A DNA stretch of 64,000 bases from a virus. Below are positions 4,621 to 57,696 of the stretch, one piece after another. The stretch's first letter is position 1, and each line of letters begins with the position of its first letter. Location of the stretch: positions 34,707 through 98,706 of IMG/VR virus record IMGVR_UViG_3300008110_000030; one strand, given 5' to 3'. The notes beneath the pieces were generated by a model. It was given only the letters and a program-made list of their open reading frames with translations. It had not been told where the DNA came from and did not search any database. A program made the position numbers and the translations under genes.

Positions 4621-4712
4621 AATTGTTTTGCTATTGACTTATGAAATAAATATCATTATAATAGCATATTATACACTATTCAGAGCATAGCTCTTATATT
4701 ATAAAGAAAGCA

Positions 4713-4855: not shown

Positions 4856-6745
4856 ATGTCAAAGATCATCGGTATCGACCTCGGTACAACAAACTCATGC
4901 GTAGCCGTTATAGAAAACGGAATCCCCAAAGTTATTGAAAATAGTGAAGGTGCTAGAACTACACCCTCAATTGTTGCCTACGCCAACAATGAAATCTTAG
5001 TAGGTGCTACTGCAAAACGTCAAGCAGTAACAAATCCTAAAAATACAATCTATGCTAGTAAGCGTTTGATTGGACGTAAGTTTGAAGAACAAGCTGTACA
5101 AAAAGATATTGACCTAATGCCTTACAAAATTGTTCGAGCAGACAATGGTGATGCATGGATTGAAGCTAACAACGACAAACTTGCCCCACCACAGATTTCG
5201 GCAGAAGTACTCCGCAAGATGAAAAAAACTGCGGAAGACTATCTTGGAGAAACTGTAACACAGGCAGTTATTACAGTCCCAGCTTACTTTAACGACAGTC
5301 AACGTCAAGCAACAAAAGATGCAGGCAAAATTGCTGGCTTAGAAGTTCTACGTATTATTAATGAACCAACAGCGGCTGCACTTAGTTATGGTGTTGACAA
5401 AGCTGATAAAGCTGACAGGAAAATTGCTGTTTACGACCTTGGTGGTGGTACATTTGACGTAAGCATTATTGACATTGCTGATGTTGATGGTGACAAGCAA
5501 ATTGAAGTGTTATCAACCAACGGTGACACATTCTTAGGCGGTGAAGATTTTGACCAACGTATTATGGATTACTTGGTTGACGAATTTAAGAAAGAGCAAG
5601 GTGTTGATCTAAAGAAAGACATGTTGGCTCTACAACGTCTTAAAGAAGCAAGTGAAAAAGCTAAAATTGAATTATCAAGTTCAGCACAAACAGATGTTAA
5701 CTTGCCATACATTACAGCAGATGCAAGTGGTCCTAAACACATGGCAATTAAGTTGACTCGTGCTAAATTTGAATCAATGGTTGATGACCTAATTCAACGC
5801 AGTTTAGATCCATGCCGTCAAGCTATGAAAGATGCTAGTGTTACTGCCGCAGACATTGACGAAGTTATCTTGGTTGGTGGTCAAACACGTATGCCTAAGG
5901 TACAAGAAGAAGTTGAAAAACTTTTTGGTAAAGCTCCACGTCGTGATGTAAATCCGGACGAAGCTGTAGCAGTTGGTGCGGCAATTCAAGGTGCTGTTTT
6001 AGGTGGTGATCGTAAAGATGTTCTACTACTTGACGTTACTCCATTAAGTCTTGGTATTGAAACACTGGGCGGCGTAATGACCAAGATCATCCAGAAGAAT
6101 ACAACTATTCCTTCTAAAGGACAGCAAACATTCTCAACAGCTGAAGATAACCAGCCTGCGGTTACTATTAAAGTATTCCAAGGTGAGCGTGAACTTTGCC
6201 AGCATAATAAAATGTTGGGAGAGTTTAATCTTGAAGGCATTGCTCCAGCTCGTCGTGGTCAGCCACAGATTGAAGTTACCTTTGACATTGACGCTAACGG
6301 CATCATGAACATTAGTGCTAAGGACAAGTCAACTGGAAAAGAAAACAAGATTACTATCAAATCAGATAGCGGTCTTAGCAAAGAAGAAATTGAAAAAATG
6401 ATTCAAGAAGCTGAAGCAAATGCCGAAGCAGATAAAAAAGCACGTGAACTAATTGATTCTCGCAACAACGCAGAATCACAAGTACACTCTGTTAAGAAAG
6501 ACTTAACAGAGTATGGTAGTAAAATCACTGAAGATGACAAGTCTAAAATAGAAACTGCTATTAAAACTGTAGAAGATTCTATTAAGGGCGACGACACTGA
6601 AGTGATTACTAAATCAGTGACAGCATTGTTTGAAGCAATGACACCACTGATTCAAGCAAAGACTAGTACTGCTTCAGAAAGCAACAACAATAATCAAGAC
6701 GATGTTGTTGATGCTCAATACACTGAAACACCTAAGTCTGAATAA
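4856..6745 (+). CDS. dnaK: molecular chaperone DnaK (Hsp70)
   Basis: 629 aa; canonical Hsp70 motifs [33 protein letters not shown]; AAAGGAGAT SD. Confidence 0.95.
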
Positions 6746-6793: not shown

Positions 6794-7228
6794 ATGAATC
6801 AACTAAGAACTATAGATGCAGATACACTAACAAAAGCTCTAATTGGATTTGACACAATGTTTGACCAATTTGAACGTAGGTTTTCTAATTCAATGAGTAA
6901 TACATATCCTCCTCATAATGTTATCAAAATTGATGACAACAATTATGAGATTCAAGTGGCTGTAACTGGTTTTGGAAAAGATGATGTTACTGTTGAACTT
7001 GATCAGAACGTGTTAATTGTGACTGCTGGTAGAGATGTTGTTGAAGATGAAAAAACATATCTACACCGTGGACTTGCACAACGCAATTTTGTTCGCAACT
7101 TCCCACTTGCTGAGCATATTGAGGTTAAAGGTGCAGAACAAAAGAACGGCATCTTGTCTATTAGACTAGAGCGCATTGTTCCAGAAGCACTCAAGCCACG
7201 TCGAATTAACGTCACGTATTCAGAGTAA
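6794..7228 (+). CDS. ibpA: small heat-shock protein, IbpA/IbpB (Hsp20) family
   Basis: 144 aa; near-collinear with E. coli IbpA (YPPxNV, RTYLxxGxAxRNFxRxFxLAExIxVxGA, ERxxPEAxKPRRI). Confidence 0.9.
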   Translation: MNQLRTIDADTLTKALIGFDTMFDQFERRFSNSMSNTYPPHNVIKIDDNNYEIQVAVTGFGKDDVTVELDQNVLIVTAGRDVVEDEKTYLHRGLAQRNFVRNFPLAEHIEVKGAEQKNGILSIRLERIVPEALKPRRINVTYSE

Positions 7229-7233
7229 TTGGC

Positions 7234-7263
7234 AAAGGGGCCACTTGTGCCCCTTTGTTATTT
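7234..7263 (+). terminator. rho-independent terminator AAAGGGGC-CACTTGT-GCCCCTTT + GTTATTT
   Basis: 8-bp stem immediately after ibpA-like stop. Confidence 0.7.
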
Positions 7264-7300: not shown

Positions 7301-7603
7301 ATGGGTGAAATTGCTACCAAACAAAAAAGTCTAGTAACTACAGATCTAATTGAACCTAGAAAGTTCAAAGTGATTTTCTTTAATGATGATAAAACTCCAA
7401 TGGATTTTGTTATAGATTTGTTGATTAATTTATTCAATCATGACCAAACTAGTAGCAGTAAACTAACAATGGAAATTCACAATGAAGGGTCAGCAGTAGT
7501 TGGGATTTACCCTTATGAAATCGCCGAGCAAAAAGGAATTGAATCCACACACATTGCTCGTCAAGCAGGCTACCCATTATTGATTAAAGTTGAATCGGAG
7601 TAA
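7301..7603 (+). CDS. clpS: ATP-dependent Clp protease adaptor ClpS
   Basis: 100 aa; FKVIFFNDDKTPMDFVIDLL matches ClpS core [20 protein letters not shown]; C-terminal HPLL-like YPLLIKVE. Confidence 0.85.
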   Translation: MGEIATKQKSLVTTDLIEPRKFKVIFFNDDKTPMDFVIDLLINLFNHDQTSSSKLTMEIHNEGSAVVGIYPYEIAEQKGIESTHIARQAGYPLLIKVESE

Positions 7604-7605
7604 CG

Positions 7606-8151
7606 ATGAGTTTACGAGAAATTACTAAAGATTTACATCACGAAGCAGAAATAACAAAATTTGCCAAGTTATTGCTAAGTGGAAAAATTGAAAAATCTGA
7701 TTATAAGAATTATCTATATAATCTAATGGCAGTATACGATCCAATCGAGTGGTACTGCAAACGTCAAGGTTTCCTTGACACAATGCCTACACTGCCAAGA
7801 CTACATGCTATCCATGCAGACTTTGTAGAATTAGATGATGGCACATATTGTTATCTAACGCCAGCGGCTTTAGAATATCAAGCATACTTACATAAACTAG
7901 GCAATGATCCAGAACGTAAACATTTGGTTAAGGCGCATTTATATTGCCGCCATATGGGCGACCTATTCGGTGGTCAAATCATTAAGAAACAAGTAGCACA
8001 CATTTCAAGTGGTAAATTTTACGACTTTGAAAATGCTGATGCTATGAAGATGTCTATTCGAGAAACACTCACAGATGATCTAGGAGATGAAGCTCGTGTG
8101 GCATTTGAATTTGCTATTAAGATGATGCGTGACTTATATGCAGGAGAGTAA
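7606..8151 (+). CDS. heme oxygenase (HO-1/HemO family)
   Basis: 181 aa; N-terminal LxExTKDLHHEAE...F (proximal His region) and LYxxYxxxE pattern of heme oxygenases; GGAG SD. Confidence 0.8.
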   Translation: MSLREITKDLHHEAEITKFAKLLLSGKIEKSDYKNYLYNLMAVYDPIEWYCKRQGFLDTMPTLPRLHAIHADFVELDDGTYCYLTPAALEYQAYLHKLGNDPERKHLVKAHLYCRHMGDLFGGQIIKKQVAHISSGKFYDFENADAMKMSIRETLTDDLGDEARVAFEFAIKMMRDLYAGE

Positions 8152-8827
8152 AGTATGGGACACACTAATTGAGATCCAAGCTCTACTTGAGGAGTCGTTT
8201 GAAAAAACAGGAGTCGAAGTATTCGAACCTGGAATGGATCGTTTTAATCAACCTGGTTGGGTTAATCGTGTATGGTCTAGTGATAAGTATCGCCGGGCCC
8301 ACGTTGATGTCGTTGATGCTAGGCTGACCAAAGGTCTTTGGATGATGCACTGTTGCATCTTCCCTCATACACACAATCCAGCACCAATTTACGGCTTTGA
8401 TGTTATTGCTGGTAAGAACAAAATTACTGGTTGTTTCCACGACTATAGTCCTGCTGGCGACAAAAATCATCCTATGATAGAATGGTTTGGTCAAGAAGTT
8501 AGCAAGTTAGAGTGGCGCAGAGAACGAGCACTTCCTGATTGGGCTCAGCGTATTTTTACCAAGCACATGGTGGCGGCAGGCAATGTTCAAGATGAAACTG
8601 AGTTACAACAAATTACAGATCTTGCTAAAACTACAGTAGAACACTATCTCAGTACTGTTGCAGAAACTAATAATACAGTGCCTGATACTACATTTGAGCA
8701 AGACTACTACGCACAAAATCAAAAACAAAACCCACATACTCCTAGAGTTATGGTTAGTTTAGGGCTTTCAGAGGACGATGTCAAGCATTTCATACAAGAA
8801 TGTCTATTTCCCGAAATTGGTAAATAA
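8129..8827 (+). CDS. ferredoxin-dependent bilin reductase (PcyA/PebS/PcyX family)
   Basis: 232 aa directly after heme oxygenase; LWMMHCCIFPHTHNPAPIYGFDVIAG...DYSP parallels PcyA LDILHCVMFPEPxYGLPLFGCDIVAG...DLSP; start ambiguous (8129 or 8138). Confidence 0.7.
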   Translation: MTYMQESKVWDTLIEIQALLEESFEKTGVEVFEPGMDRFNQPGWVNRVWSSDKYRRAHVDVVDARLTKGLWMMHCCIFPHTHNPAPIYGFDVIAGKNKITGCFHDYSPAGDKNHPMIEWFGQEVSKLEWRRERALPDWAQRIFTKHMVAAGNVQDETELQQITDLAKTTVEHYLSTVAETNNTVPDTTFEQDYYAQNQKQNPHTPRVMVSLGLSEDDVKHFIQECLFPEIGK

Positions 8828-8833: not shown

Positions 8834-10609
8834 ATGCGTTTAGATGAATTTCAATTAGCAGGGCAAATGCCCTCCAATATACAAAGAGCTGTTCCTGTAA
8901 CAGCTCAACCTTCTCAACCAGCAGTTGGTTCAGCTGGCGGTAACTCTTTAGAAGATAGCTTGGTAAAATTCGTTGATAAGGCTGACGATTTTCCAGATGA
9001 CTCACCTGTTCATGCTTATGTAAACAGCGTACTTAAAACAATTTTATCTTACATTCCAGATATTACGATACGTGAGAATTCAGCAACAAATCAATCATCT
9101 TTAGATGACACTAATCGTTCGTTATTGGAAGACCTCTTTCCTTATCTATCACAACTTAGTGAAGATTCTAGAAATACCCTTAAGGACTCGATTGACGGTG
9201 CAATACTTACATTAGAGCAAAAACAAAAACTTAGCGGTGAACTTTATAAGATTAAGGGTGCTAAAAAAGCCTTTACTAAACAGAATGTAACAATTCAATT
9301 AGACACCAAAGGCAACATTGCAAAGATGGATGCTGATATTGAAGCAACTGCTAGACAATTTGCCAAAGACTTTAAACTACCATTAAAATGGGCACGTAAC
9401 TTAATTGGCATGTTTGAGGTCAATATCACTAGAGAACAAAGAAAAGAATTCTTAATAGCCTGTAGAGCTGGTACTGCGCTTGATGTTGGTAAAATGATCA
9501 ATGACGGCGAAGGTCGTGTTGAAGACTATGTTTTGTTAGAACAGCCAGAACTTAAGGAAGTTTATAACAGTGTTAAAGACACGCTCCTAGACATCAGTTT
9601 AAGTACAGGTCAACGCGGAGCAACTGGTCCATTTGAAGCCATGATGGCCATCATGGGCGGATGTAAAAAACCTGGTATAAACGAGGGTGGTGATTTAAAG
9701 TATAAAGATTTAAAACTTGAAGTTAAAGCAACCTCAATTAGTGCTGTAACTGAATCTGCTACAGCAGGTAAAGCTAATTCTGCTTGGTTAGATTCTACAG
9801 CAGGTAAAGAAATATCAGGATCAACACTGAGAAGTGTGGCAAATGATTGGTTAGATAATTATGCTACAGAAGCAAGAACAAACAAAGCATTCCAAGATTC
9901 TTGGAAGAAAGCTGATTTCAGACCAGCAGGTCTTGAAAGTTTAAAACAGTGTTTAGTTGATCTTAGAAGTGTAGAAGGAGTTCCTGTTGCTCCAGCTAAG
10001 AAATTAATCAAATATATGATGGGAACTATGTTTCCAAGTATAGTGAAATTACAAAATGAAGGTTATGATTTTGACGCATCTTGTATGAGAATACTAACTG
10101 CAATTGGTAAGTTAGATACAAGCTCTATTGCTAAAGAACAAGGAGTTATGGCTTTATTAGAATATATAACTGGAAAAGGAAATGACGGTTTTGTATTCTT
10201 TAATCCATCAACTCAGAAATTCAAAATTGTTATGGGAGTAAAAGGTGTACTAGAAGAACTCAAATCAAAAAACGGTTCCAACCTACATTTTGATAGTACC
10301 ATGACCATGGGTAAGTCTGCAAAAGCCAGTCCAGGAATATATTATGGTGCAAAACCAAACTCGCCCGAAGGTATAGAATATCTAAAGAAATTTAATTCAA
10401 GTCCAGAACGTGTAGCTCAATTAAAACAAATAGAAGCAGATAAAGCAGCCGCAAGAGAAAATAAATCATTAGCCATGATTCAAGCCGCCAAAGAAGGCGA
10501 GTCAGAATTTGAATTTGATGGTAAAATGTATGCTGTTTCTAAAGCCGCTTTAAAGAAGTATTTTGAGCCTGACATGCCAATCTCCAGAACCAAAAAGAAA
10601 ACCCGTTAA
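8834..10609 (+). CDS. hypothetical protein (591 aa)
   Basis: long ORF, co-directional, no recognisable motifs. Confidence 0.55.
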   Translation: MRLDEFQLAGQMPSNIQRAVPVTAQPSQPAVGSAGGNSLEDSLVKFVDKADDFPDDSPVHAYVNSVLKTILSYIPDITIRENSATNQSSLDDTNRSLLEDLFPYLSQLSEDSRNTLKDSIDGAILTLEQKQKLSGELYKIKGAKKAFTKQNVTIQLDTKGNIAKMDADIEATARQFAKDFKLPLKWARNLIGMFEVNITREQRKEFLIACRAGTALDVGKMINDGEGRVEDYVLLEQPELKEVYNSVKDTLLDISLSTGQRGATGPFEAMMAIMGGCKKPGINEGGDLKYKDLKLEVKATSISAVTESATAGKANSAWLDSTAGKEISGSTLRSVANDWLDNYATEARTNKAFQDSWKKADFRPAGLESLKQCLVDLRSVEGVPVAPAKKLIKYMMGTMFPSIVKLQNEGYDFDASCMRILTAIGKLDTSSIAKEQGVMALLEYITGKGNDGFVFFNPSTQKFKIVMGVKGVLEELKSKNGSNLHFDSTMTMGKSAKASPGIYYGAKPNSPEGIEYLKKFNSSPERVAQLKQIEADKAAARENKSLAMIQAAKEGESEFEFDGKMYAVSKAALKKYFEPDMPISRTKKKTR

Positions 10610-10684
10610 GTATTAATTTACTAAGCATTTAATTTATCGCTCTACTACCGTTAAATAATAATGACGGTAATCGGAGAGCGAGCA

Positions 10685-11230
10685 ATGAAAAAACAAATGT
10701 ATGCCTTTATGCTATTGGCATGGGTAAGTGCTATTCATTCGGCACCATTGAATGACTTTCAATTTAAAAGTCCTGCATTCAATGGAGTTGGTTATAGTTC
10801 ACATGTACTAACCATAGAAAATCAAGAACGTACACGTCAAAACGAACGTGCAGATAAACTACAGGCTGAAATTGACAAAGCAATTTCAGATAAGAAAAAC
10901 ACGAATCTTGCTAAGTTTGTTAGTAACTTAGAATCGCGTATCTACGCACAGATTAGCCAAAACGTAGCAACTGCTATGTTTGCCAATAATAATTGTACAG
11001 CAAGTAGCAACACAAACTGTTCAGGGAATATTGATTTCCAAGGAAACTATATTAGTTGGAGCAAGGTATTAAGCTCTGATGATTCAAACTGTTCTACAGC
11101 ATATGGTTCTTGCATCATGTTGAGAATAGCAGATCCTACAGCAACGAACCCAACAACAGCACCTTGTAATTCTGATGGTGTATCTTGTATCTATGTGCCA
11201 CTAAGTTCATTCCAAATGCCAGGGAATTAA
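10685..11230 (+). CDS. csgF: curli assembly protein CsgF-like
   Basis: signal peptide; mature N-terminus FQFKSPAFNGV matches CsgF FQFRNPNFGGN; immediately precedes csgG; GGAGAG SD (ORF-track start 10661 is upstream alternative). Confidence 0.6.
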   Translation: MKKQMYAFMLLAWVSAIHSAPLNDFQFKSPAFNGVGYSSHVLTIENQERTRQNERADKLQAEIDKAISDKKNTNLAKFVSNLESRIYAQISQNVATAMFANNNCTASSNTNCSGNIDFQGNYISWSKVLSSDDSNCSTAYGSCIMLRIADPTATNPTTAPCNSDGVSCIYVPLSSFQMPGN

Positions 11231-11233
11231 CCC

Positions 11234-12484
11234 ATGAAAAAGACTATTATATCTTTGGCAATCGTAAGTATGCTTTCTGGCTGTGCAATTTTGCAGTCAA
11301 CAGGAGAGTTTGATAAAACTCCAGAACTGACTACTCAGATGAAAGGTGTTAAGAAAGAGTTTGACACCATTCCAAGTCCATCAGCTGGTAGACCATTAAG
11401 TGTTGCTGTATACAGTTTTACTGATAAAACGGGTCAACGTAGACCACAGGCTAATATTGCCAGTTTAAGTTCAGCAGTTACACAAGGCGCAGAATCTTTT
11501 CTAATTCAAGCACTACAAAATGTAGGTCAAGGACAATGGTTTGATGTTGTAGAAAGAGTAGGCATTGATAACCTGACTAAAGAACGATTAATTATTCGCC
11601 AGATGCGTGAAGCATACGAAGGTAAAGATGCTAAACCATTACTACCAATGCAGTTTGCAGGCATTATTATTGAAGGCGGCATTGTAGGCTATGACTCTAG
11701 CACAACTAGTGGTGGTGTTGGACAACGTATTTTTGGTATTGGAAAACAAACACAATGGTCCACTGATAGGGTTACCGTAAGTTTACGAGCAGTTAGCGTA
11801 AACACTGGCAAAGTATTAGCCACAGTGACTACTCAAAAGACTATAATGAGTTCAGCAGACAGTGTGTCTGCATTAAAATTCTTTGATGCTGGAACACAGG
11901 CGTTTGAAGCTGAGGCAGGTTTAACCATAAACGAGCCAGGTACATACGCTGTAAAGGCAACAATTGAAATGGCAGTAGTTGAATTAATTAAAGAAGGACA
12001 ACGCAAGGGAGTATGGGATTACAAGACAGTGGTTAAAGAATCACCACCTGTATCAATCGCACCACCCCCACAGGCAGCTCCAGTGATTAGCAGTGAAGTA
12101 AGACAGAAAGAAGAAATTAAAGTAGAGGAGAAGAAAGATGTCGTGGTTCAATCACAAACCCAATCCGAAACGAAAACAGAAGCCGCACCCAGTGCCTCCA
12201 CAGAAGTAAAAAAAGAGACACTTAAGGACGGTGCAGAACTAAAAGTAACAGCAATGCAAACTGGGGTAAAACCAACAATAGATCTTTTTGGTGCTAGGTA
12301 TTTAAAAGAAGATTCATTTGTATATAAAGAAGCAAACGAAAAAAGTCAGCGAACTTGGCTATTAAAGAAAGGCACTGAATTATACATTATTACTCCAGGA
12401 CCAGAAGGTTGGCACCAAGTAAGAGACGCAGAGAAGCGTAAAGGTTTTGTCAAGAATTCAGTACTCGGAACTGACAAACCATAA
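11234..12484 (+). CDS. csgG: curli production assembly/transport lipoprotein CsgG with C-terminal Pro/Lys/Glu-rich linker and SH3-like extension
   Basis: lipobox LSGCA; collinear with E. coli CsgG (VAVYSFTDKTGQ, IIEGGIVGYDSSTTSGGVGQRIFGIGKQTQ, LRAVSVNTGKVL); about 140 extra C-terminal aa. Confidence 0.9.
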   Translation: MKKTIISLAIVSMLSGCAILQSTGEFDKTPELTTQMKGVKKEFDTIPSPSAGRPLSVAVYSFTDKTGQRRPQANIASLSSAVTQGAESFLIQALQNVGQGQWFDVVERVGIDNLTKERLIIRQMREAYEGKDAKPLLPMQFAGIIIEGGIVGYDSSTTSGGVGQRIFGIGKQTQWSTDRVTVSLRAVSVNTGKVLATVTTQKTIMSSADSVSALKFFDAGTQAFEAEAGLTINEPGTYAVKATIEMAVVELIKEGQRKGVWDYKTVVKESPPVSIAPPPQAAPVISSEVRQKEEIKVEEKKDVVVQSQTQSETKTEAAPSASTEVKKETLKDGAELKVTAMQTGVKPTIDLFGARYLKEDSFVYKEANEKSQRTWLLKKGTELYIITPGPEGWHQVRDAEKRKGFVKNSVLGTDKP

Positions 12485-12582
12485 AGATAGCGAGTACGGA
12501 GGAACGTAGAGGTAAACTTAATTTAATGGCCGTAGGCCAAGGAGCGTGGTTGGAGAATATATAATCCAATCGTGTATAAAAG

Positions 12583-13557
12583 ATGGACAAAAGAAACAAA
12601 GGCGTTGGTAAGTTGTCGAGAAAATTACTTACAATTCTGGTGTTGTCTGGAATGGCAACATTGGGTCATGCGGCTGATAACAGCATCTACATTGATCAAG
12701 CAGGTGACAACAGCACAATTACTATGACACAAGATGGTGCTGGTAATAAAGTAAAAGGCATTTTGTCAAGCGGTGTTGCTGGAGGTACTACAGATCCTGC
12801 TAAACTTACTGGCAATGCTCAAACAGTTAACATTGAGCAAACTGGTGCAACCAACGTCTTGGCATTGGGAGTTAATTCAACGCAAGGTGGTTTAGTACAA
12901 GGATATGCTAACATAGGTGTGAATTTAAACTATCAAGTAAGTGGTGGTGGAAACACTGGTTATATTAACATTAATAACAATGGTCAAGGAACTGCAATTG
13001 GTAATGTGGTCAGTATTATACAAAGTGGTGGCGGTGGAACAGCAACACTTAACATGACTGGAACTAGTAATCAATTGACTGTTGGTCAGAGTGGTGGTGC
13101 TAACAATACATTTATAGGCACAATCAATGCTGACGAAACTGTAGCAACTGTAAGTAACACACTAGGTGGTGGTAATACTACAACATTAGACATGACTGGA
13201 AATAAAGGTCAAGTTAGTGTTACAACAACAGGCACTACAAATACAACAAGCGTGACACAAAGCGCATTTGGATCAACTGGTGCGCAAGTACTAGTTAACA
13301 TTGATGGTTCAGGCAATAATACAACTGTTACACAAAGTGGTATGTATGATCACTATGCTAGTCTAAGTGTAGTTGGCAGTGGTAATAACTTTACAATAGC
13401 ACAGTCTGGTGGTTCTGCAACTGGACATTCTGCTACATTGTCTGTAACTGGAAGTACAAACACTGTTGGTATCACACAGCAAGGATCAGTTGCCAATCTA
13501 ACCAACATGGCAGTAAATGGTAGTAATAATACATACACTATACTACAGAAAAATTAA
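12583..13557 (+). CDS. secreted curlin-repeat protein (CsgA/CsgB-like amyloid subunit)
   Basis: signal peptide; many imperfect repeats of type N-x-T-V-x-Q-x-G-x-x-N (for example NQLTVGQSGGANN, NTTVTQSGMYDH, NFTIAQSGGSATGHSATLSVTGSTNTVGITQQGSVAN). Confidence 0.7.
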   Translation: MDKRNKGVGKLSRKLLTILVLSGMATLGHAADNSIYIDQAGDNSTITMTQDGAGNKVKGILSSGVAGGTTDPAKLTGNAQTVNIEQTGATNVLALGVNSTQGGLVQGYANIGVNLNYQVSGGGNTGYININNNGQGTAIGNVVSIIQSGGGGTATLNMTGTSNQLTVGQSGGANNTFIGTINADETVATVSNTLGGGNTTTLDMTGNKGQVSVTTTGTTNTTSVTQSAFGSTGAQVLVNIDGSGNNTTVTQSGMYDHYASLSVVGSGNNFTIAQSGGSATGHSATLSVTGSTNTVGITQQGSVANLTNMAVNGSNNTYTILQKN

Positions 13558-13566
13558 GAGGTTGGA

Positions 13567-14673
13567 ATGAACGTATGGCTAGCAATATTACTTGTTTCGT
13601 TACTGCACACATCAAATGCTCAAGCGGCAATTGGTAAAGTAACGGAACAGGTAAACATACCTCCTACAATTCAACGAGATAAATCAACCCTAACTGGCAG
13701 CAAAGGTACAGGTGTTGAGATGAATGACTCAATTAAAACTTCTCAAGGCAAAGTGGGCATTACCTTTGAAGATGATACCCGTGTACAAGTAAACGAAAAC
13801 AGTAAACTGGTTATTGATGACTTTGTTTATGATCCAAAAACCAAAGCAGGTAAACTAGGTGCTAAGATTGCACTAGGTACTGTACGCTATGCTAGTGGAC
13901 AGATTGCTAAGAATAGTCCACAGAGTGTAAACCTTAATACACCTAGTGCTACTGTAGCAGTTCGTGGTACGGACTTTACAGCCACAGTAGACGAACTTGG
14001 TGAGAGTACAATTATTCTACTACCTAGTTGTCCTAACGATAGACCTACACGTACAGTAAAAGACATTGAAGCAAGTTGTAAAACTGGTGTAATTGAAGTC
14101 AGCAATGACGTGGGCACTGTAATATTAAATCAACCGTTCCAAGTAACTAAAGTACAGAGCAGAACACAACCTCCTACTCCACCTAAAACACTGGAGTTAT
14201 CTGAAATGGCTATCAGTAACTTGATAATTTTGAGTCCTCCAAAAGAAGTTAAGCAAGCTCAAGAAGAACAGCGTAAAGTGTTTAATCCTTTAGACATAGA
14301 TTTTCTAAAAGAAAAAGGATTAGAGAACTGGCTTGATATGCAAGCTGGAGTTATCTACGAAGACAAACTAAAGAAAAACTTTTTGGATAACGATTTCCTA
14401 GCCAGCTTATTTGACATTATTGGTAATCAATTGGATCAAAAATTCTTAGACCCAGTAGATCCTGTACTACCTGACTACAAGAGAGCTACTGGTATCGTTG
14501 CCTACAAAGATGATACGAGTATTGAATTGTGTAGAGATAGTGGTGCTGACATACAGTGTGTTAAAACTCCTTTAACACAGAACAGTACAATCTTCCAAAC
14601 ACAAGGTAGTTTAGAGTTTAAGAATCGTGTTAATCAAGGCGGTAATACTATCATTACCTTAATACAAAGATGA
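13567..14673 (+). CDS. secreted FecR-domain protein
   Basis: signal peptide; TPSATVAVRGTDFTATV matches FecR-domain core (x-V-x-V-RGT-x-F); sits between the two curlin-like genes. Confidence 0.5.
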   Translation: MNVWLAILLVSLLHTSNAQAAIGKVTEQVNIPPTIQRDKSTLTGSKGTGVEMNDSIKTSQGKVGITFEDDTRVQVNENSKLVIDDFVYDPKTKAGKLGAKIALGTVRYASGQIAKNSPQSVNLNTPSATVAVRGTDFTATVDELGESTIILLPSCPNDRPTRTVKDIEASCKTGVIEVSNDVGTVILNQPFQVTKVQSRTQPPTPPKTLELSEMAISNLIILSPPKEVKQAQEEQRKVFNPLDIDFLKEKGLENWLDMQAGVIYEDKLKKNFLDNDFLASLFDIIGNQLDQKFLDPVDPVLPDYKRATGIVAYKDDTSIELCRDSGADIQCVKTPLTQNSTIFQTQGSLEFKNRVNQGGNTIITLIQR

Positions 14674-15938: not shown

Positions 15939-16628
15939 TTATACCTTAAATAACCATTTCTTTGTTATGTGTAATCTTGCCTTGTTGTACTGAACAGCAG
16001 TAATAACTAGAGCAACTGCCCAAGGTACAATAGTAGCGGCCCAAGGAACTAATCCTGCCCACCACGTAGCCATTAATGGTTCTTTCATCAACATTAACAT
16101 AGCCACGGCAAACAAGACAAACGATCCTACAAATACTGTGTCAGGATATTTTTCTAGTATCTTACTAACTAGGCCAGCACCAAACAAAATAATTGGCACA
16201 CTGATTAACAAGCCAGCAATTACTAAAACAAAACTTCCATTAGCGGCTGCGGCAATACCTAGTGCGTTGTCTATGCCCATAACAGCATCGGCAACTACGA
16301 TAGTACCAATAGCACCCCAAAAGGTGTCCTTGGCTTCTATGTTATGCTCGTCATGTGTAAATGCTAACTTCCAACCAATCCATAACAATGCAAGAGCACC
16401 TATTGCTCTAAGTCCAGGAATTAGTAATAGGTAAGTTAATGCGGCTACAGATATGAAGCGTATTGCGATGGCACCAAAGGTACCCCAAAAGATTGCTTTC
16501 TTGCGCAAGTGATCTGGTAGTTTATTAGCTGCCATTCCAATAACAAGAGCGTTATCGCCAGCTAATACAATGTCTATCAAAATGATAGCTAAAAATGCCC
16601 AAAGGGCCTGAAGCGTAAAGAGTTCCAT
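15939..16628 (-). CDS. TerC/YjbE-family integral membrane protein
   Basis: 229 aa on minus strand; duplicated LAGDNALVIG / GIDNALGIA motifs typical of TerC family; multiple TM helices. Confidence 0.8.
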   Translation of the reverse strand: MELFTLQALWAFLAIILIDIVLAGDNALVIGMAANKLPDHLRKKAIFWGTFGAIAIRFISVAALTYLLLIPGLRAIGALALLWIGWKLAFTHDEHNIEAKDTFWGAIGTIVVADAVMGIDNALGIAAAANGSFVLVIAGLLISVPIILFGAGLVSKILEKYPDTVFVGSFVLFAVAMLMLMKEPLMATWWAGLVPWAATIVPWAVALVITAVQYNKARLHITKKWLFKV

Positions 16629-17300: not shown

Positions 17301-17593
17301 TTAAGAAAATCTTATTAATTCTATTGGTCTGCTTACCCAGTCTAGTTAACGCCCAATTCCAATACGATTATCCATTGTTGTGCGACCGCACTGCAAAGAT
17401 CATACAAAGTCTCGGGGACGACTGGAAAGAAACGCTGACTTGGAGTGGAAAACACATCAGTGACAACAGTGTCTACAGTCTGTGGACCAATGAAAAAAAT
17501 GGATCATGGACCCTATTAAAGATGACTTCAGAAGTTTCGTGTATACTTGGAACGGGTAGCGAATCAAAAGTAAACTTAGGAATGCCTATATAA
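17297..17593 (+). CDS. small secreted protein
   Basis: signal peptide MIKKILLILLVCLPSLVNAQ; ATGA overlap upstream and TAATG overlap downstream. Confidence 0.45.
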   Translation: MIKKILLILLVCLPSLVNAQFQYDYPLLCDRTAKIIQSLGDDWKETLTWSGKHISDNSVYSLWTNEKNGSWTLLKMTSEVSCILGTGSESKVNLGMPI

Positions 17594-19635
17594 TGATTAA
17601 GAAAATTTTATTAAGCCCTTGGACTGCTCTATTAACACTGGCGTTAGTAGTGGGCATACGTGCGGCAGACCCCACATTCGTTGAAAGCGTAAGACTACGC
17701 TACTTTGATACCTTAATTACTGCTAAGGAACCAACATTCAACAATATTGTAACAGTAAATATTGATGAAGCTAGCTTGGACAAGTATGGACAATGGCCAT
17801 TGCCAAGGACTGAATATGCCAAAATTATACGAGATCTATATCAGAGGGGAGCAGGACTTGTTGTACTTAATGTGCTCATGCCAGAGTCAGACCGTACAGG
17901 TGGCGACAGTGCGTTGGGTCAAACTCTAAAAGAATTTCCAGTAGTGCTAGGGTCAGTTCCTAGCAACAAAACAAAAAATACTCCACGTGCCCCAGGGTCA
18001 GCAGTATTAGGCCCAGAGCATTTGGATCAAATTATTCGGTATCCAGGTCTAATTGCCAATGTGCCATTGCTAGAAAATTCGGCGGCAGGAGTTGGCATAG
18101 TTTCAACACTACCTGAAGTAGACGGTGTTAATCGTAGATTACCTCTTATCGTCACTGTTGATGGTAAATTATATCCAAGCATAGCTATGGAAACGCTCCG
18201 CATTGCGGCTGGCGATAGCACCTTTCAAGTAAAACTATTTGAGGGCGGTGTTGAAAAAATGCGTATACCTAAATTTGGTCCTGTTACTACAGACAATTTG
18301 GGTCGTATATGGATTGACTGGAGTCAGCAAAATAGAAACTTTAGTTTAACTACATTACCAAAAGATTTAGAAGGTGCAATTGTCATCGTAGGCCCAACAG
18401 CCGCAGGTATTAGTAATCCAGTACCAACAAGTAAAGGGGCAGTATTTCCACACGAAGTACAAGCCGCAGTTATTGGTACAATGGTAAACGGAGTTGTAAT
18501 TGAACGTCCTGATTATGCAGATGGCGCAGAGATTATAGCATTATTAGCATTTGGTTTATTATTAATTTTCTTATCGAGGTGGACTTATGTTGGCATTTGT
18601 GCTACTGTGGTTATTGTTGGTGCCGTCGTTCCTGGTACTATGTACGCTTTCACTAATTGGCTCATCCTATCAGACGCGACTGCAATCACGTTTGGGCTTA
18701 TTATCGTTGCTCTTCATACTTATGGCGTTAAGTTTGTAAGCGAGTTCTTACAGAAGCAGGCAATTAAGAAACAATTTGAGGGATATGCAAGTCCTACAGT
18801 AGTTAAACTACTACAAGAAAATCCAGACATCATCAAGAACGGAACTAAACGTGAAGTATCTATAGTGTTTTCAGACCTACGTGGATTTACTCCATTAGGT
18901 GAAAGTTTTGGTGATGACGTTAAAGGTCTAACTGAAGTTATGAACGGCTACATGGATGCTATTACACAACCTGTACTAGATGCAGATGGTATGATTATCA
19001 AGTACATTGGTGATGCAAGTATGCATATTCATAATGCACCTATTGATGATCCTGACCATGCTAAGACAGCAGTAGCTACTGGACTTAAAATGTTGAAAGC
19101 TGTTAAAAAGTTCAGCATTGAATTAGAGGCTAAAGGACGTCCAGGAGTCAAGATGGGTGCTGGTATCAATACTGGTTTAGGTTATATTGGCGAGATGGGA
19201 TCAACTCGTCGTCATTCATATGATGTACTAGGTGATGCAGTGTCAACAGCCGCACGTATTGAAAGCAAGTGTAAAGAATATGGATGCGTATTATTAGTTG
19301 GCGGTGCAACTGTGGAACAATGTGGTGATGATTTCTTCTTCTTAAAAGTAGATGACCTGGCTGTTAAGGGTAAGAGTGTGGGAGTTGCTATCTATACAGT
19401 ATTAGATGATGTTACTGCTGAGTATCATGTGAGTAAAAAGATACATGATGCTATGCATAATGCATATAGATCACAAAAATTTAACATGGCTATCAGTATG
19501 TGCAAACAACTTAGAGATCAGTTTGACAGTAGATTGACTGGTTACTATGACATGTGGATAGAACGTTGCGAGTTCCAATTAACACAAACATTGCCTGAGG
19601 ATTGGAACGGCGTGTTTATAGCAACTTCTAAATAA
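17593..19635 (+). CDS. CHASE2 sensor domain-containing class III adenylate/guanylate cyclase
   Basis: 680 aa; N-terminal periplasmic domain, TM cluster, C-terminal cyclase homology domain (VSIVFSDLRGFTPLGE, IKYIGDASM, GINTGLGYIGEMGS). Confidence 0.85.
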   Translation: MIKKILLSPWTALLTLALVVGIRAADPTFVESVRLRYFDTLITAKEPTFNNIVTVNIDEASLDKYGQWPLPRTEYAKIIRDLYQRGAGLVVLNVLMPESDRTGGDSALGQTLKEFPVVLGSVPSNKTKNTPRAPGSAVLGPEHLDQIIRYPGLIANVPLLENSAAGVGIVSTLPEVDGVNRRLPLIVTVDGKLYPSIAMETLRIAAGDSTFQVKLFEGGVEKMRIPKFGPVTTDNLGRIWIDWSQQNRNFSLTTLPKDLEGAIVIVGPTAAGISNPVPTSKGAVFPHEVQAAVIGTMVNGVVIERPDYADGAEIIALLAFGLLLIFLSRWTYVGICATVVIVGAVVPGTMYAFTNWLILSDATAITFGLIIVALHTYGVKFVSEFLQKQAIKKQFEGYASPTVVKLLQENPDIIKNGTKREVSIVFSDLRGFTPLGESFGDDVKGLTEVMNGYMDAITQPVLDADGMIIKYIGDASMHIHNAPIDDPDHAKTAVATGLKMLKAVKKFSIELEAKGRPGVKMGAGINTGLGYIGEMGSTRRHSYDVLGDAVSTAARIESKCKEYGCVLLVGGATVEQCGDDFFFLKVDDLAVKGKSVGVAIYTVLDDVTAEYHVSKKIHDAMHNAYRSQKFNMAISMCKQLRDQFDSRLTGYYDMWIERCEFQLTQTLPEDWNGVFIATSK

Positions 19636-21112: not shown

Positions 21113-21187
21113 CTGGCGATAGTTCAACGGATAGAACAGTAGCCTTCTAAGCTATTAATCCAGGTTCGATTCCTGGTCGCCGGACCA
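21113..21187 (+). tRNA. tRNA-Arg (anticodon TCT), CCA encoded
   Basis: cloverleaf folded by hand: acceptor CTGGCGA/TCGCCGG (one G-U), D arm GTTC-AACGGATA-GAAC, anticodon arm GTAGC-CTTCTAA-GCTAT, T arm CCAGG-TTCGATT-CCTGG, discriminator A + CCA; 75 nt. Confidence 0.85.
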
Positions 21188-22049: not shown

Positions 22050-22679
22050 ATGGGATTTGTTACTGACGGAGATTTATCTAAAATATTTGGACGTATTGAC
22101 AAAAAACTGTCTGTTGTTCATGACAAGGACAAGTCTTTAGTTGAAATACTTGATCTTGATATCGCTAGCGGGCCTTGGCTTGCTGGCGGTGCTGTACTTA
22201 CTTGGCTTAGTGGTAACCCAGTTGGCGACAGTGACTTTGATATATTTTTCAAAGATTTGCGACAGTTTGATGAAGTGTTTGGCAGACTCATGCGCAACCA
22301 TGCTAGTATCATCTACACCAGTGAAAACGCATTGACCTTGCATCTTGTTATTGATGACGATCTCAAACGAATCCAATTGATTCGAAAAAATTATTTTGAT
22401 TCTGCAAAAGATGTAATTGATCATTTTGACTTTACTATTTGTCAACTGGTAACTGATGGCTACCAAATAGTTGGTGCTGACCACACATTTGAACATATAA
22501 AAGAAAAACGAATTGTATCTGTTGGACCTGCCAAACGATCTATTGTAAAAAGAATTGTCAAATATGTTAGTTATGGATACACTGTTGATTGTGATTTAAT
22601 GCAATCAATTCTCGACAATCCTGAAGAGTATGATTGGTCATTTAATAACATAGATGAAAATTATGAAAACGCATTCTAA
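22050..22679 (+). CDS. putative Pol-beta-superfamily nucleotidyltransferase
   Basis: GGAVLTWLSGNPVGDSDFDIFF fits hG[GS]-x9-13-DhD motif; downstream VIDDD may give third acidic residue. Confidence 0.5.
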   Translation: MGFVTDGDLSKIFGRIDKKLSVVHDKDKSLVEILDLDIASGPWLAGGAVLTWLSGNPVGDSDFDIFFKDLRQFDEVFGRLMRNHASIIYTSENALTLHLVIDDDLKRIQLIRKNYFDSAKDVIDHFDFTICQLVTDGYQIVGADHTFEHIKEKRIVSVGPAKRSIVKRIVKYVSYGYTVDCDLMQSILDNPEEYDWSFNNIDENYENAF

Positions 22680-42003: not shown

Positions 42004-42729
42004 ATGTTAAAAATTACAAATCTCTCCGTCAATTACGACGTTATTCCAATTTTGGAAGATATCAATTTAGAAATCAATGAAGGCGAAATTCACGCCATTT
42101 TAGGACCAACAGGTTCAGGCAAAAGTTCCTTAGTCAGTGTTATTGCTGGCAAATCAGATCTTAGCGTTGTCAAAGGTAAAATAAACTTTAAGAGAAAATC
42201 TTTAAACAGTTTAGATCCAAATGAAAGAAGTAAATTAGGAATTTTTACAACATTTCAGGAGCCACCTGAAATTAATGGCATTACAAATTTAAATTTAACT
42301 AGACAAATTTTGAATGCTCGAAATGATAAAAGATCATCAACTGACGTTATTAATGATTATAAAAATTTAATAAAACAATTTGATCTAGGAAGCGAATGGT
42401 CTAATCGAGATTACAACGTAGGAGCAAGCGCAGGCGAAAAAAAGAAAAATGAAATTGTACAGTTATACATGCTCAATCCATCTCTTACAATTTTAGACGA
42501 TATTGACAGTGGCTTAGACTTAGACACACTAACTGAAGTATTTAAAAGTTTAAAATCTTTCCTCTCACAAAAAGGAAAGGCAGCTATCATTATCACACAT
42601 CAACCAACGATCCTTGAAGCAATAGAGCCCACACATGTGCATGTTATCATAGATGGAAGAATCGTGGAGTCAGGTGATAAGAAAATAATTAAAAGGATCA
42701 TTTCAAATGGCTATCGAGAGTTTTCTTAA
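42004..42729 (+). CDS. sufC: Fe-S cluster assembly ATPase SufC
   Basis: 241 aa; Walker A GPTGSGKSS, ABC signature-like SAGEKKK, Walker B ILDDIDSGLD; typical SufC length. Confidence 0.85.
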   Translation: MLKITNLSVNYDVIPILEDINLEINEGEIHAILGPTGSGKSSLVSVIAGKSDLSVVKGKINFKRKSLNSLDPNERSKLGIFTTFQEPPEINGITNLNLTRQILNARNDKRSSTDVINDYKNLIKQFDLGSEWSNRDYNVGASAGEKKKNEIVQLYMLNPSLTILDDIDSGLDLDTLTEVFKSLKSFLSQKGKAAIIITHQPTILEAIEPTHVHVIIDGRIVESGDKKIIKRIISNGYREFS

Positions 42730-43531
42730 AGTTGATTCACAAGACCCAGATTGGTCAAACAGTCCTACACAGTACTTTGGTAAAAAATTTAAGGTCATTG
42801 ATGCAAATTGCTTAATGATAAAAGAAAATACTGATGACTTGATGGTTCTACGTATGAATCCAACTGAATCAGATTTGTTATGCAAAAATTTACAAGTGCT
42901 TGGAAGAGACAGTAGTAGGCTAGACTTATTCATTCTATGCGATGGATCTAAAAATACTCAACAGGTTTTTATTTACAATGTAACTGCTGAACCAAATTCA
43001 ATTATTAATATTGGGATTTTTGTTAAAGACGGGAAACTTAATAAGCATATATTTGAATGTGAGCTATACGAAAACTCTGTTATTAATATCTTTGGTCTAG
43101 CAGAAAATGGGGTTGGCGGTAGCAGTGAGATTATAAGCAAAGTTTATCACGCTGGTCCTTGTGCAGAGAGCAACACGTTTGTAAACAGTATTGCTGGAAA
43201 AAATAGTCGAACTGTCTTTCAGGGTATTGTTAAAATTGAAGAAGACATGATAGACAGCGTGTCCAGTGTAACTAATACCAGTATTGTCTGTGACGAAACT
43301 TCACAAGCATTTAGTACTCCACAAATGGTTATTGACTGTGGACAAGTACGGGCGTATCATAGTTGTGAAGTTACTACAATTGACGAACATAGTCTATGGT
43401 ATTTAGAAAGCAAGGGCATTGATAAAGTCAGTGCTGAGAACTTGTTAAAAACCCTGCATCAAGATAGTGTGTTGGAACTTATTGAATATCAAGACATTAA
43501 AGATGAACTCAAAGATTTTTTCCAAAGTTAA
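42707..43531 (+). CDS. sufD: SufD/SufB-family protein, short form (274 aa)
   Basis: C-terminal HAGPCAE...VFQGIVKI...AYHSCEVTTIDEHSLWYLESKGI matches SufB/D beta-helix core; overlaps sufC. Confidence 0.6.
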   Translation: MAIESFLKVDSQDPDWSNSPTQYFGKKFKVIDANCLMIKENTDDLMVLRMNPTESDLLCKNLQVLGRDSSRLDLFILCDGSKNTQQVFIYNVTAEPNSIINIGIFVKDGKLNKHIFECELYENSVINIFGLAENGVGGSSEIISKVYHAGPCAESNTFVNSIAGKNSRTVFQGIVKIEEDMIDSVSSVTNTSIVCDETSQAFSTPQMVIDCGQVRAYHSCEVTTIDEHSLWYLESKGIDKVSAENLLKTLHQDSVLELIEYQDIKDELKDFFQS

Positions 43532-44651
43532 AAGCGATTTTACTTTACCAGACAAAACATACTTAAACAGTGCATCACAAACTATAATTCCTAATCAGGT
43601 AAAGGATTCCTACCTTGATATTTGTAATAAAATTGATGCAAGGGATGAGTATGAGTTTATTAGACAAAAAGTAAAATTATTAATTAATTCTAAAAAAGAC
43701 AACGAAATAATTTTTACTCAAGGAAACAATCATGGCATAAACATGATTGCCAAGAGCATTTGTCACAAATGGCATTCAAATGATTGTGTAATTGTTCCTG
43801 AAAGTGAACACCATGCTAATTTTCTCATTTGGCAATACATGTCCATTGAATATGGTTTTAGATTTGAAACCGTAAATGTTATCAAAGATGGCAGTATGGA
43901 TCTTGGTCATCTTGAAGATTTACTCAATGGCTGTGATGGTAAGATATTGTTCAGTATGAGCCATATCTCTAACAGTATTGGTTATGTACAACCTGTTAAA
44001 AGTATATTTGATAAAGTCAAAGAATATGACGGGATAACTTTGCTAGATGCAAGTTTAAGCATTGGCAGAGAAACAATAGACGTGCAAGATTTCAATATTG
44101 ATTTTTTAACATTTACTGGACATAAATTTTATGGTCCAACGGGTGTTGGCATGTTATACGGGAAACAAAAGTATTTAGACAAGTTAGAACCTACTATATT
44201 AGGTGATAGCAATAGTACACTACTCCCTTGGAAATTAGAAATTGGCAAACCCAACATTGCAGGGGTAGTAATGTTAGGTTCAGCAATTGACTGGTTCACT
44301 TCATATGATTTAGAAAGTTTTAAAGTTCATGACAAACTTATGAATGCAAACTTTCAAATGATGTTGAATGACCTTGACTTCATAGAAATATTCCACCCAG
44401 GTTACTATAAAGGTGGCTTAATTGGCTTCAACGTACATGGCCACCATCCTGCTTATGTAGGAGAATTTTTACTTAACGAAGGAATTGTATTAAAATATGG
44501 TCATTTAAATGCAAGACCAATTGTAGAAGAAAAATTCCCAAATGGAATACTTAGATTGAGTTGGGCTTGCTACAATACTAAAGATGATGTTGAACATTTA
44601 AAACAGGGTCTTGTAAAATTCTACGATAAATACAATTCTAAAAGGACATAA
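43503..44651 (+). CDS. sufS: SufS/CsdA-like class V aminotransferase (cysteine desulfurase family)
   Basis: PLP-lysine motif FTGHKFYGPTGVGMLYG; C-terminal RLSWACYNTKDDVE like SufS RASLAMYNTHEEVD; ATG 43503 chosen; GHLNA where group II enzymes have GHHCA. Confidence 0.75.
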   Translation: MNSKIFSKVKSDFTLPDKTYLNSASQTIIPNQVKDSYLDICNKIDARDEYEFIRQKVKLLINSKKDNEIIFTQGNNHGINMIAKSICHKWHSNDCVIVPESEHHANFLIWQYMSIEYGFRFETVNVIKDGSMDLGHLEDLLNGCDGKILFSMSHISNSIGYVQPVKSIFDKVKEYDGITLLDASLSIGRETIDVQDFNIDFLTFTGHKFYGPTGVGMLYGKQKYLDKLEPTILGDSNSTLLPWKLEIGKPNIAGVVMLGSAIDWFTSYDLESFKVHDKLMNANFQMMLNDLDFIEIFHPGYYKGGLIGFNVHGHHPAYVGEFLLNEGIVLKYGHLNARPIVEEKFPNGILRLSWACYNTKDDVEHLKQGLVKFYDKYNSKRT

Positions 44652-44654
44652 AAT

Positions 44655-45041
44655 ATGGCATATTCAGACAAAGTAATCGATCATTACGAGAATCCTCGCA
44701 ACGTTGGTAGCTTTGACAAGAACGATACCGATGTTGGCACTGGCATGGTTGGTGCACCTGCTTGCGGTGATGTAATGAAACTACAGATAAAGGTAGACAA
44801 TGATACAGGTATTATTACAGATGCAAAATTTAAAACGTATGGCTGCGGATCGGCTATCGCGAGCTCGAGTCTCGTTACAGAATGGCTCAAAGGAAAAACT
44901 CTCGACGAAGCAGGAACAATCAAAAACTCCGAAATCGCCACAGAACTAGCATTACCCCCAGTAAAGATACACTGTAGTATTCTAGCAGAAGATGCTATTA
45001 AGGCGGCTGTAAATGATTACCGTAACCGACACAGCACGTAA
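44655..45041 (+). CDS. iscU: Fe-S cluster scaffold IscU
   Basis: 128 aa, nearly identical in long blocks to E. coli IscU (VIDHYENPRNVGSF, GAPACGDVMKLQIKV, KTYGCGSAIASSSLVTEW, LPPVKIHCSILAEDAIKAA). Confidence 0.9.
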   Translation: MAYSDKVIDHYENPRNVGSFDKNDTDVGTGMVGAPACGDVMKLQIKVDNDTGIITDAKFKTYGCGSAIASSSLVTEWLKGKTLDEAGTIKNSEIATELALPPVKIHCSILAEDAIKAAVNDYRNRHST

Positions 45042-45339
45042 GAGAATTAAACAGAATTTAGAAAAACGCGGCAAAGGCGTGGGTATTCGCATAGGTGTAA
45101 AAACCACAGGCTGTAGTGGATTGGCCTATACTATCGAATATGTGGATGAATACACTGCTGAACCTGGAGTCACTAATTTTGGTCAACCAGAATTTATTGT
45201 GCTGGTCGATGCCAAGAGTTTGGCTTATCTAAATGGTTTAACAATGGATTGGGTTCGCAACGGACTTAATGAAGGATTTGATTTTATTAATCCCAATGAG
45301 CGTGACCGCTGTGGATGTGGTGAAAGTTTTAGAGTTTAA
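45013..45339 (+). CDS. iscA: Fe-S cluster insertion protein IscA/SufA (HesB family)
   Basis: 108 aa; GCSGLAY...VDAKSLAYLNG...CGCGESF matches IscA. Confidence 0.85.
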   Translation: MITVTDTARKRIKQNLEKRGKGVGIRIGVKTTGCSGLAYTIEYVDEYTAEPGVTNFGQPEFIVLVDAKSLAYLNGLTMDWVRNGLNEGFDFINPNERDRCGCGESFRV

Positions 45340-45623: not shown

Positions 45624-45704
45624 GCCATTATTTACATTAAGTTTATAAAACTATAAGGTAAATAAAGTGGACAGTTGGTATATCACCCAAATTTGGAGTT
45701 AATA

Positions 45705-54236: not shown

Positions 54237-54273
54237 GATATCCTAAAATAAATAAGATAAACAGGAACGAAAA

Positions 54274-57693: not shown

Positions 57694-57696
57694 ACT

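Follow-up and report, generated by a model that had tools for sequence, protein, structure and literature searches.

Why phages of non-photosynthetic bacteria keep a pathway from heme to phycobilins is a question that was raised by the discoverers of PcyX themselves, and the comparisons made in this study sharpen it. The locus analysed lies in a stretch of 64,000 nucleotides of the IMG/VR virus record IMGVR_UViG_3300008110_000030 (positions 34,707 to 98,706; hereafter, the window), in which a gene for a heme oxygenase (HO), hemO, overlaps a gene for a ferredoxin-dependent bilin reductase (FDBR). Our analysis assigned the reductase to the PcyX type and indicated that the two genes probably constitute a functional hemO-pcyX pair making phycoerythrobilin (PEB).

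Identification of the heme oxygenase and the bilin reductase

Both open reading frames (ORFs) are present on the + strand, hemO at 7606..8151 (181 aa) and the reductase ORF at 8129/8138-8827, as claimed by the original prediction, which had been made from the sequence without database searches. Judged by its family match, the first product is an HO-1-type heme oxygenase, for which alpha-meso cleavage of heme is predicted. The protein is short, yet it spans the whole PF01126 (Heme_oxygenase) profile (positions 6-203 of 204; E 3.2e-22, 79.8 bits, cut-off 23), and among solved structures it is closest to Synechocystis HO-1 (1WE1, E 1e-11). His11 is aligned to the proximal heme-ligand His of the latter, and GDLFGGQ is aligned to its distal-helix GDLSGGQ. 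In a comparison of 80 sequences, comprising the window and 79 relatives, the proximal His is kept in 79, and the distal-helix motif G-D-[L/M]-x-G-G-Q is invariant at G, D, G, G, and Q in all 80, with L (77) or M (3) at the third position. The alpha-meso cleavage of heme to biliverdin IX-alpha has been demonstrated for vHemO of the phage CB_2 (Wegner 2024, PMC11480375).

The second product matched PF05996 (Fe_bilin_red) at E 2.4e-14 over profile positions 39-228 of 228, and PHROG 7278 "ferredoxin oxidoreductase" at E 4e-20. Since both Pfam profiles were matched above their cut-offs, the overlapping HO and FDBR pair of the original prediction is confirmed; a miss by PF05996 had been named there as the result that would speak against it, and the observed score was 54 bits versus a cut-off of 31. 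The quoted motifs MHCCIFPH, PIYGFDVIAG, and DYSP are also present in the sequence. The length of the reductase had to be corrected, however. The predicted 232 aa correspond to the ORF read from GTG 8129 (8129..8827, +), whereas the start is most likely ATG 8138, giving 229 aa (8138..8827, +), because this exact 229-aa product is recorded on 15 public contigs, the same look-up of the GTG version returned no contig, and the ATG produces a 14-nt overlap with hemO (8138..8151) like that of the Pelagibacter phage Mosig.

Placement of the reductase among bilin reductases

The original prediction described the reductase as PcyA/PebS/PcyX-like, and the resemblance to PcyX held, whereas the placement could be made more exact: the protein is of the PcyX type (AX clade) and not a PcyA, PebS, PebA, or PebB. 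A phmmer search against all PDB sequences gave 231.7 bits (E 7.6e-68) for PcyX_EBK42635 (5OWG), as against no more than 59 bits (3e-15) for any PcyA, and PebS, PebA, PebB, and HY2 produced no match even at E<=10. The NCBIfam PcyA equivalog NF002760 scored 87 bits, which is below its cut-off of 206. The identity of the FDBR was 52% to the Mosig reductase, 48% to PcyX_EBK42635, and 24-29% to PcyA. Among 50,697 phage records, the only close homologue was that of Mosig, with 51% identity and an adjacent HO, while the cyanophage pcyA genes in the same records reached 22-29%; blastn of the 1.2-kb pair region against these records gave no matches, and thus no close isolate was found. A scan through the genomes of 185,579 species of bacteria and archaea, by a method that detects close relatives only, yielded none, which fits with the exclusivity of this enzyme to phages.

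The active-site residues agree with this placement. Asp57 occupies the position of PcyA Glu76, His71 corresponds to His88, Asp88 corresponds to Asp105, and Pro199 stands at the position of PcyA Asp220; the same arrangement is listed for PcyX in a table of PMC13446030. None of the four residues varies among 121 homologues (the window and the 120 closest database clusters). At the position of PcyA His88, where the window protein has His, PebS, PebA, PebB, and HY2 have Asn, and the core identity to PebS, PebA, and PebB is 10-17%.

A phylogeny of the FDBR, by which the original prediction had proposed to be checked, was constructed by neighbour-joining from 149 core columns with 100 bootstraps scored on bipartitions, using the reference sequences in Supplementary Dataset 6 of Wegner et al. 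2024. The window FDBR grouped with those of the freshwater GROS21-1_SAMEA9560546 and 9560794 (88% support), this group was joined by GROS542 (99%) and next by the clade of marine PcyX and marine valaS-cassette sequences (93%), and all of these were placed inside the AX clade (100%), separate from cyanobacterial and cyanophage PcyA (100%). An AlphaFold2 model of moderate quality (pLDDT 77, pTM 0.77) retrieved 5OWG first in a Foldseek search against the PDB (E 1e-10, target-normalised TM 0.74), and the top 45 matches were all of the FDBR/RCCR fold.

Predicted chemistry and product

In the proposed pathway, HO would open host heme to biliverdin IX-alpha with the release of Fe2+ and CO, and the PcyX-type reductase would then take four electrons from ferredoxin to convert biliverdin to a phycobilin. 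The final bilin is predicted to be PEB, formed via 15,16-dihydrobiliverdin (15,16-DHBV) as in marine PcyX. Glu76 is required for 18-vinyl reduction by PcyA, and PcyX, which has Asp there, makes PEB (PMC13446030; PMC10151467). PEB rather than phycocyanobilin (PCB) is therefore the predicted product of the window enzyme, since it has Asp and not Glu at the site directing 18-vinyl reduction and since it groups with PcyX.

The alternative is that the reductase is functionally a PcyA that makes PCB, for example to load a phytochrome-type sensor. The FDBR of CB_2, the sole freshwater phage FDBR to have been assayed, was annotated as pcyX-like, lacks the Asp, and makes PCB (PMC11480375), so that naming from sequence as PcyX or PcyA has already been wrong once in the AX clade, and the JGI annotation labels homologues of the window FDBR as "phycocyanobilin:ferredoxin oxidoreductase". 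Against this, our alignment shows that CB_2 has Glu at the PcyA Glu76 position where the window protein has Asp, and the CB_2 enzyme is only 36% identical and is basal within the AX clade; the window enzyme, by contrast, stands with marine PcyX at 93% bootstrap support; the score far below the PcyA equivalog cut-off points the same way. We therefore consider a PCB-forming enzyme unlikely.

As for the electron donor of the predicted PEB-forming reaction, a ferredoxin motif scan in six frames of the window (plant-type/adrenodoxin-type [2Fe-2S] and 4Fe-4S) returned none, and its one rubredoxin-like match was located on the minus strand within a non-coding-looking ORF. The ferredoxin would thus presumably be that of the host or be encoded elsewhere in the phage.

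Organization of the gene cluster

The hemO gene is preceded by clpS, encoding the ClpAP adaptor (7301..7603, +; PF02617 E 3.9e-25), which ends 2 nt upstream, and a GGAG is located 5 nt before the hemO ATG. The spacings are 2 nt between clpS and hemO, -14 nt between hemO and pcyX, and 6 nt between pcyX and the next ORF. Further upstream on the + strand are dnaK (4856..6745; Pfam HSP70) and hsp20 (6794..7228; Pfam HSP20). An overlap of 4-59 nt between hemO and the FDBR gene, measured with heuristic ORF starts, was found in 78 of the 80 sequences compared for HO. Owing to the 14-nt overlap and the position directly after clpS, hemO and pcyX are probably translationally coupled. A strong terminator-like hairpin lies between hsp20 and clpS (7230..7260, +; a 12-bp stem containing 6 GC pairs, with a T-run after it), and together with the tight spacings it suggests that clpS, hemO, pcyX, and the next ORF form one transcription unit. 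A near-consensus sigma-70-like promoter site, TTGACT-17-TATAAT, precedes dnaK (4634..4662), and dnaK-hsp20 may be a unit apart from clpS-hemO-pcyX; both the promoter and the hairpin were called by consensus scan only.

The ORF that begins 6 nt after pcyX (8834-10609) encodes a 591-aa protein and represents a hypervariable slot beside the cassette. It was considered as a conserved bilin-binding partner and rejected, as it had no Pfam, PHROG, or NCBIfam match and its homologues were found in only 6 of 78 loci.

Gain, loss, and constraint of the cassette

Two sets of related IMG/VR loci were compared, namely 79 selected by the FDBR and 80 selected by DnaK. In the FDBR-selected set, HO lies directly upstream of the FDBR in 78 of 79 loci and 1.5 kb upstream in the remaining one, so the adjacency is not fortuitous, and the order dnaK-hsp20-clpS-hemO-pcyX is widely kept (dnaK in 73/77, hsp20 in 74/78, clpS in 76/78, and hemO in 79/79). 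In the DnaK-selected set, clpS stands at the same offset in 73 of 74 loci, and the hemO-pcyX pair is found in about 60 of 70. With truncated contigs excluded, the approximately nine DnaK-selected loci without the FDBR are also without HO and have kept dnaK-hsp20-clpS; in L285, L288, L289, L296, L298, L299, L323, and others, both genes are missing within at least 5 kb downstream of this block. The hemO-pcyX pair behaves as one accessory unit, both genes being gained or lost in concert.

The reductase is under purifying selection. In the DnaK-selected set, the median identity to the window proteins was 79% for DnaK, 75% for the FDBR, 52% each for ClpS and Hsp20, and 46% for HO, and the dN of the FDBR (0.157) was the lowest of the five genes, with a dN/dS of about 0.08 that is approximate since dS is saturated. 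The oxygenase follows a different pattern. Among the loci L010-L088, the identity of HO to that of the window is bimodal, being 34-49% in 56 loci and 80-95% in 19, and the adjacent FDBR is 78-89% identical. Loci with an FDBR in this identity range carry a window-type HO in 22 cases (in addition to the window), a GROS794-type HO in 39, and a GROS823-type HO in 12. The nearest HO to that of the window (54%) comes from GROS623, a genome whose reductase is of the Glu type and only 46% identical to the window FDBR. This relationship suggests that HO alleles have been exchanged beside a constrained reductase through recombination inside the cassette.

Dispensability of the pair, as seen in the roughly nine of about 70 related phages that have the DnaK-Hsp20-ClpS block and lack both genes, might be taken to indicate that the genes are decaying passengers without current function. 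We regard this as extremely improbable, because the ORFs are intact in the 79 relatives with invariant catalytic residues, because the amino-acid divergence of the FDBR is far below the saturated synonymous divergence, and because more than 120 protein clusters (90% identity) are found at 81-92% identity to the window FDBR.

The carrier phage and its probable host

Sequence comparison indicates that the window belongs to a jumbo phage with a genome of roughly 350 kb: JGI contigs of 38 and 101 kb match it at 99.99% identity, and a 349,857-bp contig (JGI 3300071516, Ga0620986_00424) matches it at approximately 95-97% DNA identity. The 314 IMG/VR contigs with relatives of the FDBR reach 280 kb, and a relative selected by DnaK is carried on a 383-kb contig. 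A literature search for the JGI sample numbers returned no publication; the 33000082xx samples may stem from Lake Erie. The window has a GC content of about 38% and carries rIIA, rIIB, a prohead protease, and a DNA polymerase fragment, as well as three consecutive giant tail-fibre/virion-structural genes (2853, 1139, and 1413 aa; 45675-61938) identified by PHROG matches.

The host is likely a freshwater betaproteobacterium and not a cyanobacterium, primarily because the phage DnaK has its nearest relatives in Burkholderiales. Of the 80 cellular DnaKs most similar to it, at 66-76% identity, nearly all are from Betaproteobacteria/Burkholderiales, and none is cyanobacterial; Rhodoferax, Limnohabitans, Polynucleobacter, Variovorax, Paraburkholderia, and Methylophilaceae are represented, and some of the sequences come from complete chromosomes. 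The closest phage CsgG proteins are those of Pelagibacter phage HTVC008M and the Methylophilales Melnitz phages. The suspicion of a non-cyanobacterial host, voiced in the original prediction from the curli, Suf, and dnaK genes of the window, is thus supported by DnaK and by the closeness of CsgG and HO-FDBR to those of pelagiphages and methylophages. In the phage genes, AGA accounts for 37% of Arg codons and UUA for 35% of Leu codons (GC3 0.26), and the window encodes tRNA-Arg(UCU) (21113-21187) and two tRNA-Leu(UAA) (24093-24177 and 24240-24324). Phage tRNAs reading AGA and UUA, together with this codon use, would be expected of a phage with a GC content below that of its host.

An ordinary cyanophage pigment cassette, in which the phage infects a freshwater cyanobacterium and the bilin feeds phycobiliproteins as proposed for marine ho1/pebS and pcyA, might be supposed from the fact that this type of cassette was first found in cyanophages and that the weaker FDBR matches in isolated phages are all cyanophage pcyA; some of the source samples may also come from bloom-affected lakes. 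The cyanophage matches, however, do not exceed 22-29% identity, the nearest phage homologues of the FDBR and CsgG belong to Pelagibacter and Methylophilales phages, none of the 80 nearest cellular DnaKs is cyanobacterial, and the window carries curli export genes, whereas its Pfam annotation includes no photosynthesis or phycobilisome genes. We consider this explanation very unlikely.

Possible role of the cassette

Our best guess, held with low confidence, is that the bilin itself, rather than iron alone, is the selected product. The bilin is favoured because the FDBR is conserved like DnaK, HO is freely swapped, the specificity residues are invariant, and valaS (5-aminolevulinate synthase) is present in relatives, where it would feed tetrapyrrole flux. 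By tblastn, no valaS was found within the 64-kb window. The gene shares a contig with the FDBR in seven related IMG/VR contigs (3300028393_000019, 3300027679_000366, 3300010334_002087, 3300027969_002501, 3300027798_002580, 3300027836_000389, and 3300008119_000566), and in the two that were compared, 3300028393_000019 and 3300027679_000366, it lies on the strand opposite to the FDBR, approximately 27-30 kb upstream of it, so that an equivalent valaS would fall outside the window.

Taken furthest, this reading is that in a widespread clade of freshwater jumbo phages of heterotrophic or non-phycobilisome Betaproteobacteria the bilin, predicted to be PEB, would be selected for its action on a bilin-binding target of the phage or host, such as a regulator or sensor. 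The reductase would be the constrained core and HO an exchangeable supplier, and together with ClpS and the distal valaS they would constitute a module that rewires tetrapyrrole metabolism and is unrelated to light harvesting. This complete scheme is speculative, and we think it improbable that all of its parts will hold.

Iron or heme management offers a different explanation of the role, in which the iron released by HO would supply the Fe-S assembly of the phage and ferredoxin-dependent enzymes and the reductase would serve to clear biliverdin. The window contains a five-gene Suf/Isc-type set 34 kb downstream of the cassette (42004..45339, +), which may be linked to the HO-released iron. 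By Pfam matches on the identical contig L009, the set comprises a SufC-like ABC ATPase (ABC_tran), SufD (SUFBD_core), the cysteine desulfurase SufS (Aminotran_5), a scaffold resembling NifU/IscU (NifU_N), and a carrier resembling IscA (Fe-S_biosyn). Biliverdin release limits the turnover of mammalian HO-1, and removal of biliverdin would be useful in such a scheme. An iron-supply role has also been discussed for such cassettes (PMC11480375). If iron were selected, however, HO should be constrained, but it is the least conserved protein of the block and is exchanged, while the FDBR is conserved at about the level of DnaK; any reductase would suffice, yet the Asp/His/Asp/Pro signature is invariant; and valaS in related genomes would raise tetrapyrrole synthesis rather than scavenging. 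We consider selection for iron rather unlikely; as it concerns the role only, it is compatible with the proposed chemistry.

Several points weigh against our interpretation of the cassette as a PEB-forming module with a selected bilin in a betaproteobacterial phage. The choice of PEB over PCB leans mainly on one residue and on phylogeny, and freshwater AX-clade relatives carry Ser, Val, Cys, or Glu at the Asp57 site, which indicates that specificity is evolutionarily labile in this family. The structural model of the reductase is of moderate quality, the synonymous sites behind the dN/dS estimate are saturated, and no ferredoxin motif accompanies the reductase in the window. The host call depends on one gene, dnaK, and on a peptide-pattern search in which distant lineages can be missed. 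Furthermore, Betaproteobacteria have no PEB-binding protein known to us, and the Pfam annotation of the window includes no recognisable bilin-binding domain.

Comparison with known phage bilin systems

The hemO-pcyX configuration in freshwater jumbo phages has already been published. In large phages from freshwater, Chen et al. 2020 reported ho1 next to pcyX-like genes, and Wegner et al. 2024 (PMC11480375) described freshwater contigs of 318-374 kb with a GC content of 38-41% that carry hemO, pcyA/X, and valaS, and placed metagenome-derived viral FDBRs within PcyX. The closest of these are the GROS21-1 contigs from Lake Grosse Fuchskuhle (Wegner 2024, PMC11480375, Supplementary Datasets 1 and 6), all of which have hemO, pcyA/X, and valaS, although these do not form a single contiguous cassette. 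Over the core, the FDBR of SAMEA9560546 shares 72% identity with that of the window and the FDBR of SAMEA9560794 shares 70%; both have the same Asp/His/Asp/Pro and belong to the same subclade. The window is nevertheless a different species-level sequence, its HO is only 42-43% identical to theirs, and valaS, present in all of their genomes, is missing from its 64 kb.

Uncultured marine phages carry PcyX_EBK42635 and HemO (Ledermann 2016, 2018; 5OWG), which similarly form a two-gene hemO-pcyX cassette on phage DNA; this PcyX, identical at 48% over its full length, has the same catalytic Asp/His/Asp and Pro and was the top structural match. Its genomes, in contrast, are marine, T4-like, and pelagiphage-type of approximately 140 kb with other neighbouring genes, as opposed to a freshwater phage of approximately 350 kb, and PEB synthesis was demonstrated there, whereas it is predicted for the window enzyme. 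Pelagibacter phage Mosig EXVC030M (Mosig_00054/00053) has the closest homologue in an isolated phage (51-52%), with HO just upstream and the same 14-nt overlap. It differs in being a 141-kb Kyanoviridae myophage of SAR11, its HO is 31% identical to the window HO, and its cassette lies between 2OG-Fe(II) oxygenase/ferrochelatase genes and neck genes rather than after dnaK-hsp20-clpS.

The large methanotroph phage CB_2, with vHemO and PcyA (Chen 2020, Wegner 2024), resembles the phage of the window in that it is likewise a jumbo phage from freshwater (527 kb, GC 37.5%) and has hemO and an FDBR of the AX clade; its genome includes valaS. Its FDBR, however, has the Glu residue and the basal position described above and is a PCB maker by experiment. 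Cyanophages carry heme-to-bilin genes as well, namely ho1/pebS in P-SSM2 and pcyA in P-SSM4 and others, and PebS performs the same four-electron reaction from biliverdin to PEB; however, PebS, PebA, and PebB were not detectable from the window FDBR, the cyanophage PcyA has Glu76, and the hosts are cyanobacteria. A paper on boreal freshwater jumbophages makes no mention of HO, bilin, curli, DnaK, or Suf. Beyond what Chen et al. 2020 and Wegner et al. 2024 describe, the present analysis appears to add the conserved linkage to clpS, the unit-like presence and absence, the suggested exchange of HO alleles, the probable betaproteobacterial affinity, and the Asp-based prediction of PEB for this subclade.

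Other genes in the window

A phage curli-type cluster (10661-14673) follows the variable ORF and comprises CsgF (10661-11230), CsgG with a C-terminal SH3-like domain (11234-12484), a 324-aa protein (12583-13557), and a FecR-domain protein (13567-14673). The 324-aa protein matches the CsgB/CsgA curlin repeats weakly (E 5e-8 and 3.5e-6, under the cut-offs) and may be a candidate curli subunit; the pelagimyophage paper PMC7029224 states that phage curli clusters lack CsgA and CsgB. At 17593-19635, the window encodes a 680-aa protein in which a CHASE2 sensor is joined to a class III nucleotidyl (guanylate/adenylate) cyclase; it is kept in 27 of the 42 relatives whose loci extend to this point. Further cell-like genes of the window encode Cpn10/GroES (439-729), TerC (15939-16628, - strand), a Gad2-domain protein (22050-22679), a Band_7 protein (31631-32440), a PTPS/QueD-like protein (39385-39924), and the UV endonuclease UvdE (40482-41498). 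An IMPDH gene was observed just upstream of the window on contig L002.

Implications for phage bilin biosynthesis

The window itself adds little to the catalogue of phage bilin cassettes, but the clade to which its reductase belongs is very abundant, with more than 120 clusters and 314 IMG/VR contigs. The DnaK-like conservation of the reductase, the swapping of the oxygenase, and the unit-like gain and loss of the pair argue for a function of the bilin itself in these phages. They also make the window enzyme a suitable choice for assaying a freshwater PcyX of the Asp type for the first time.

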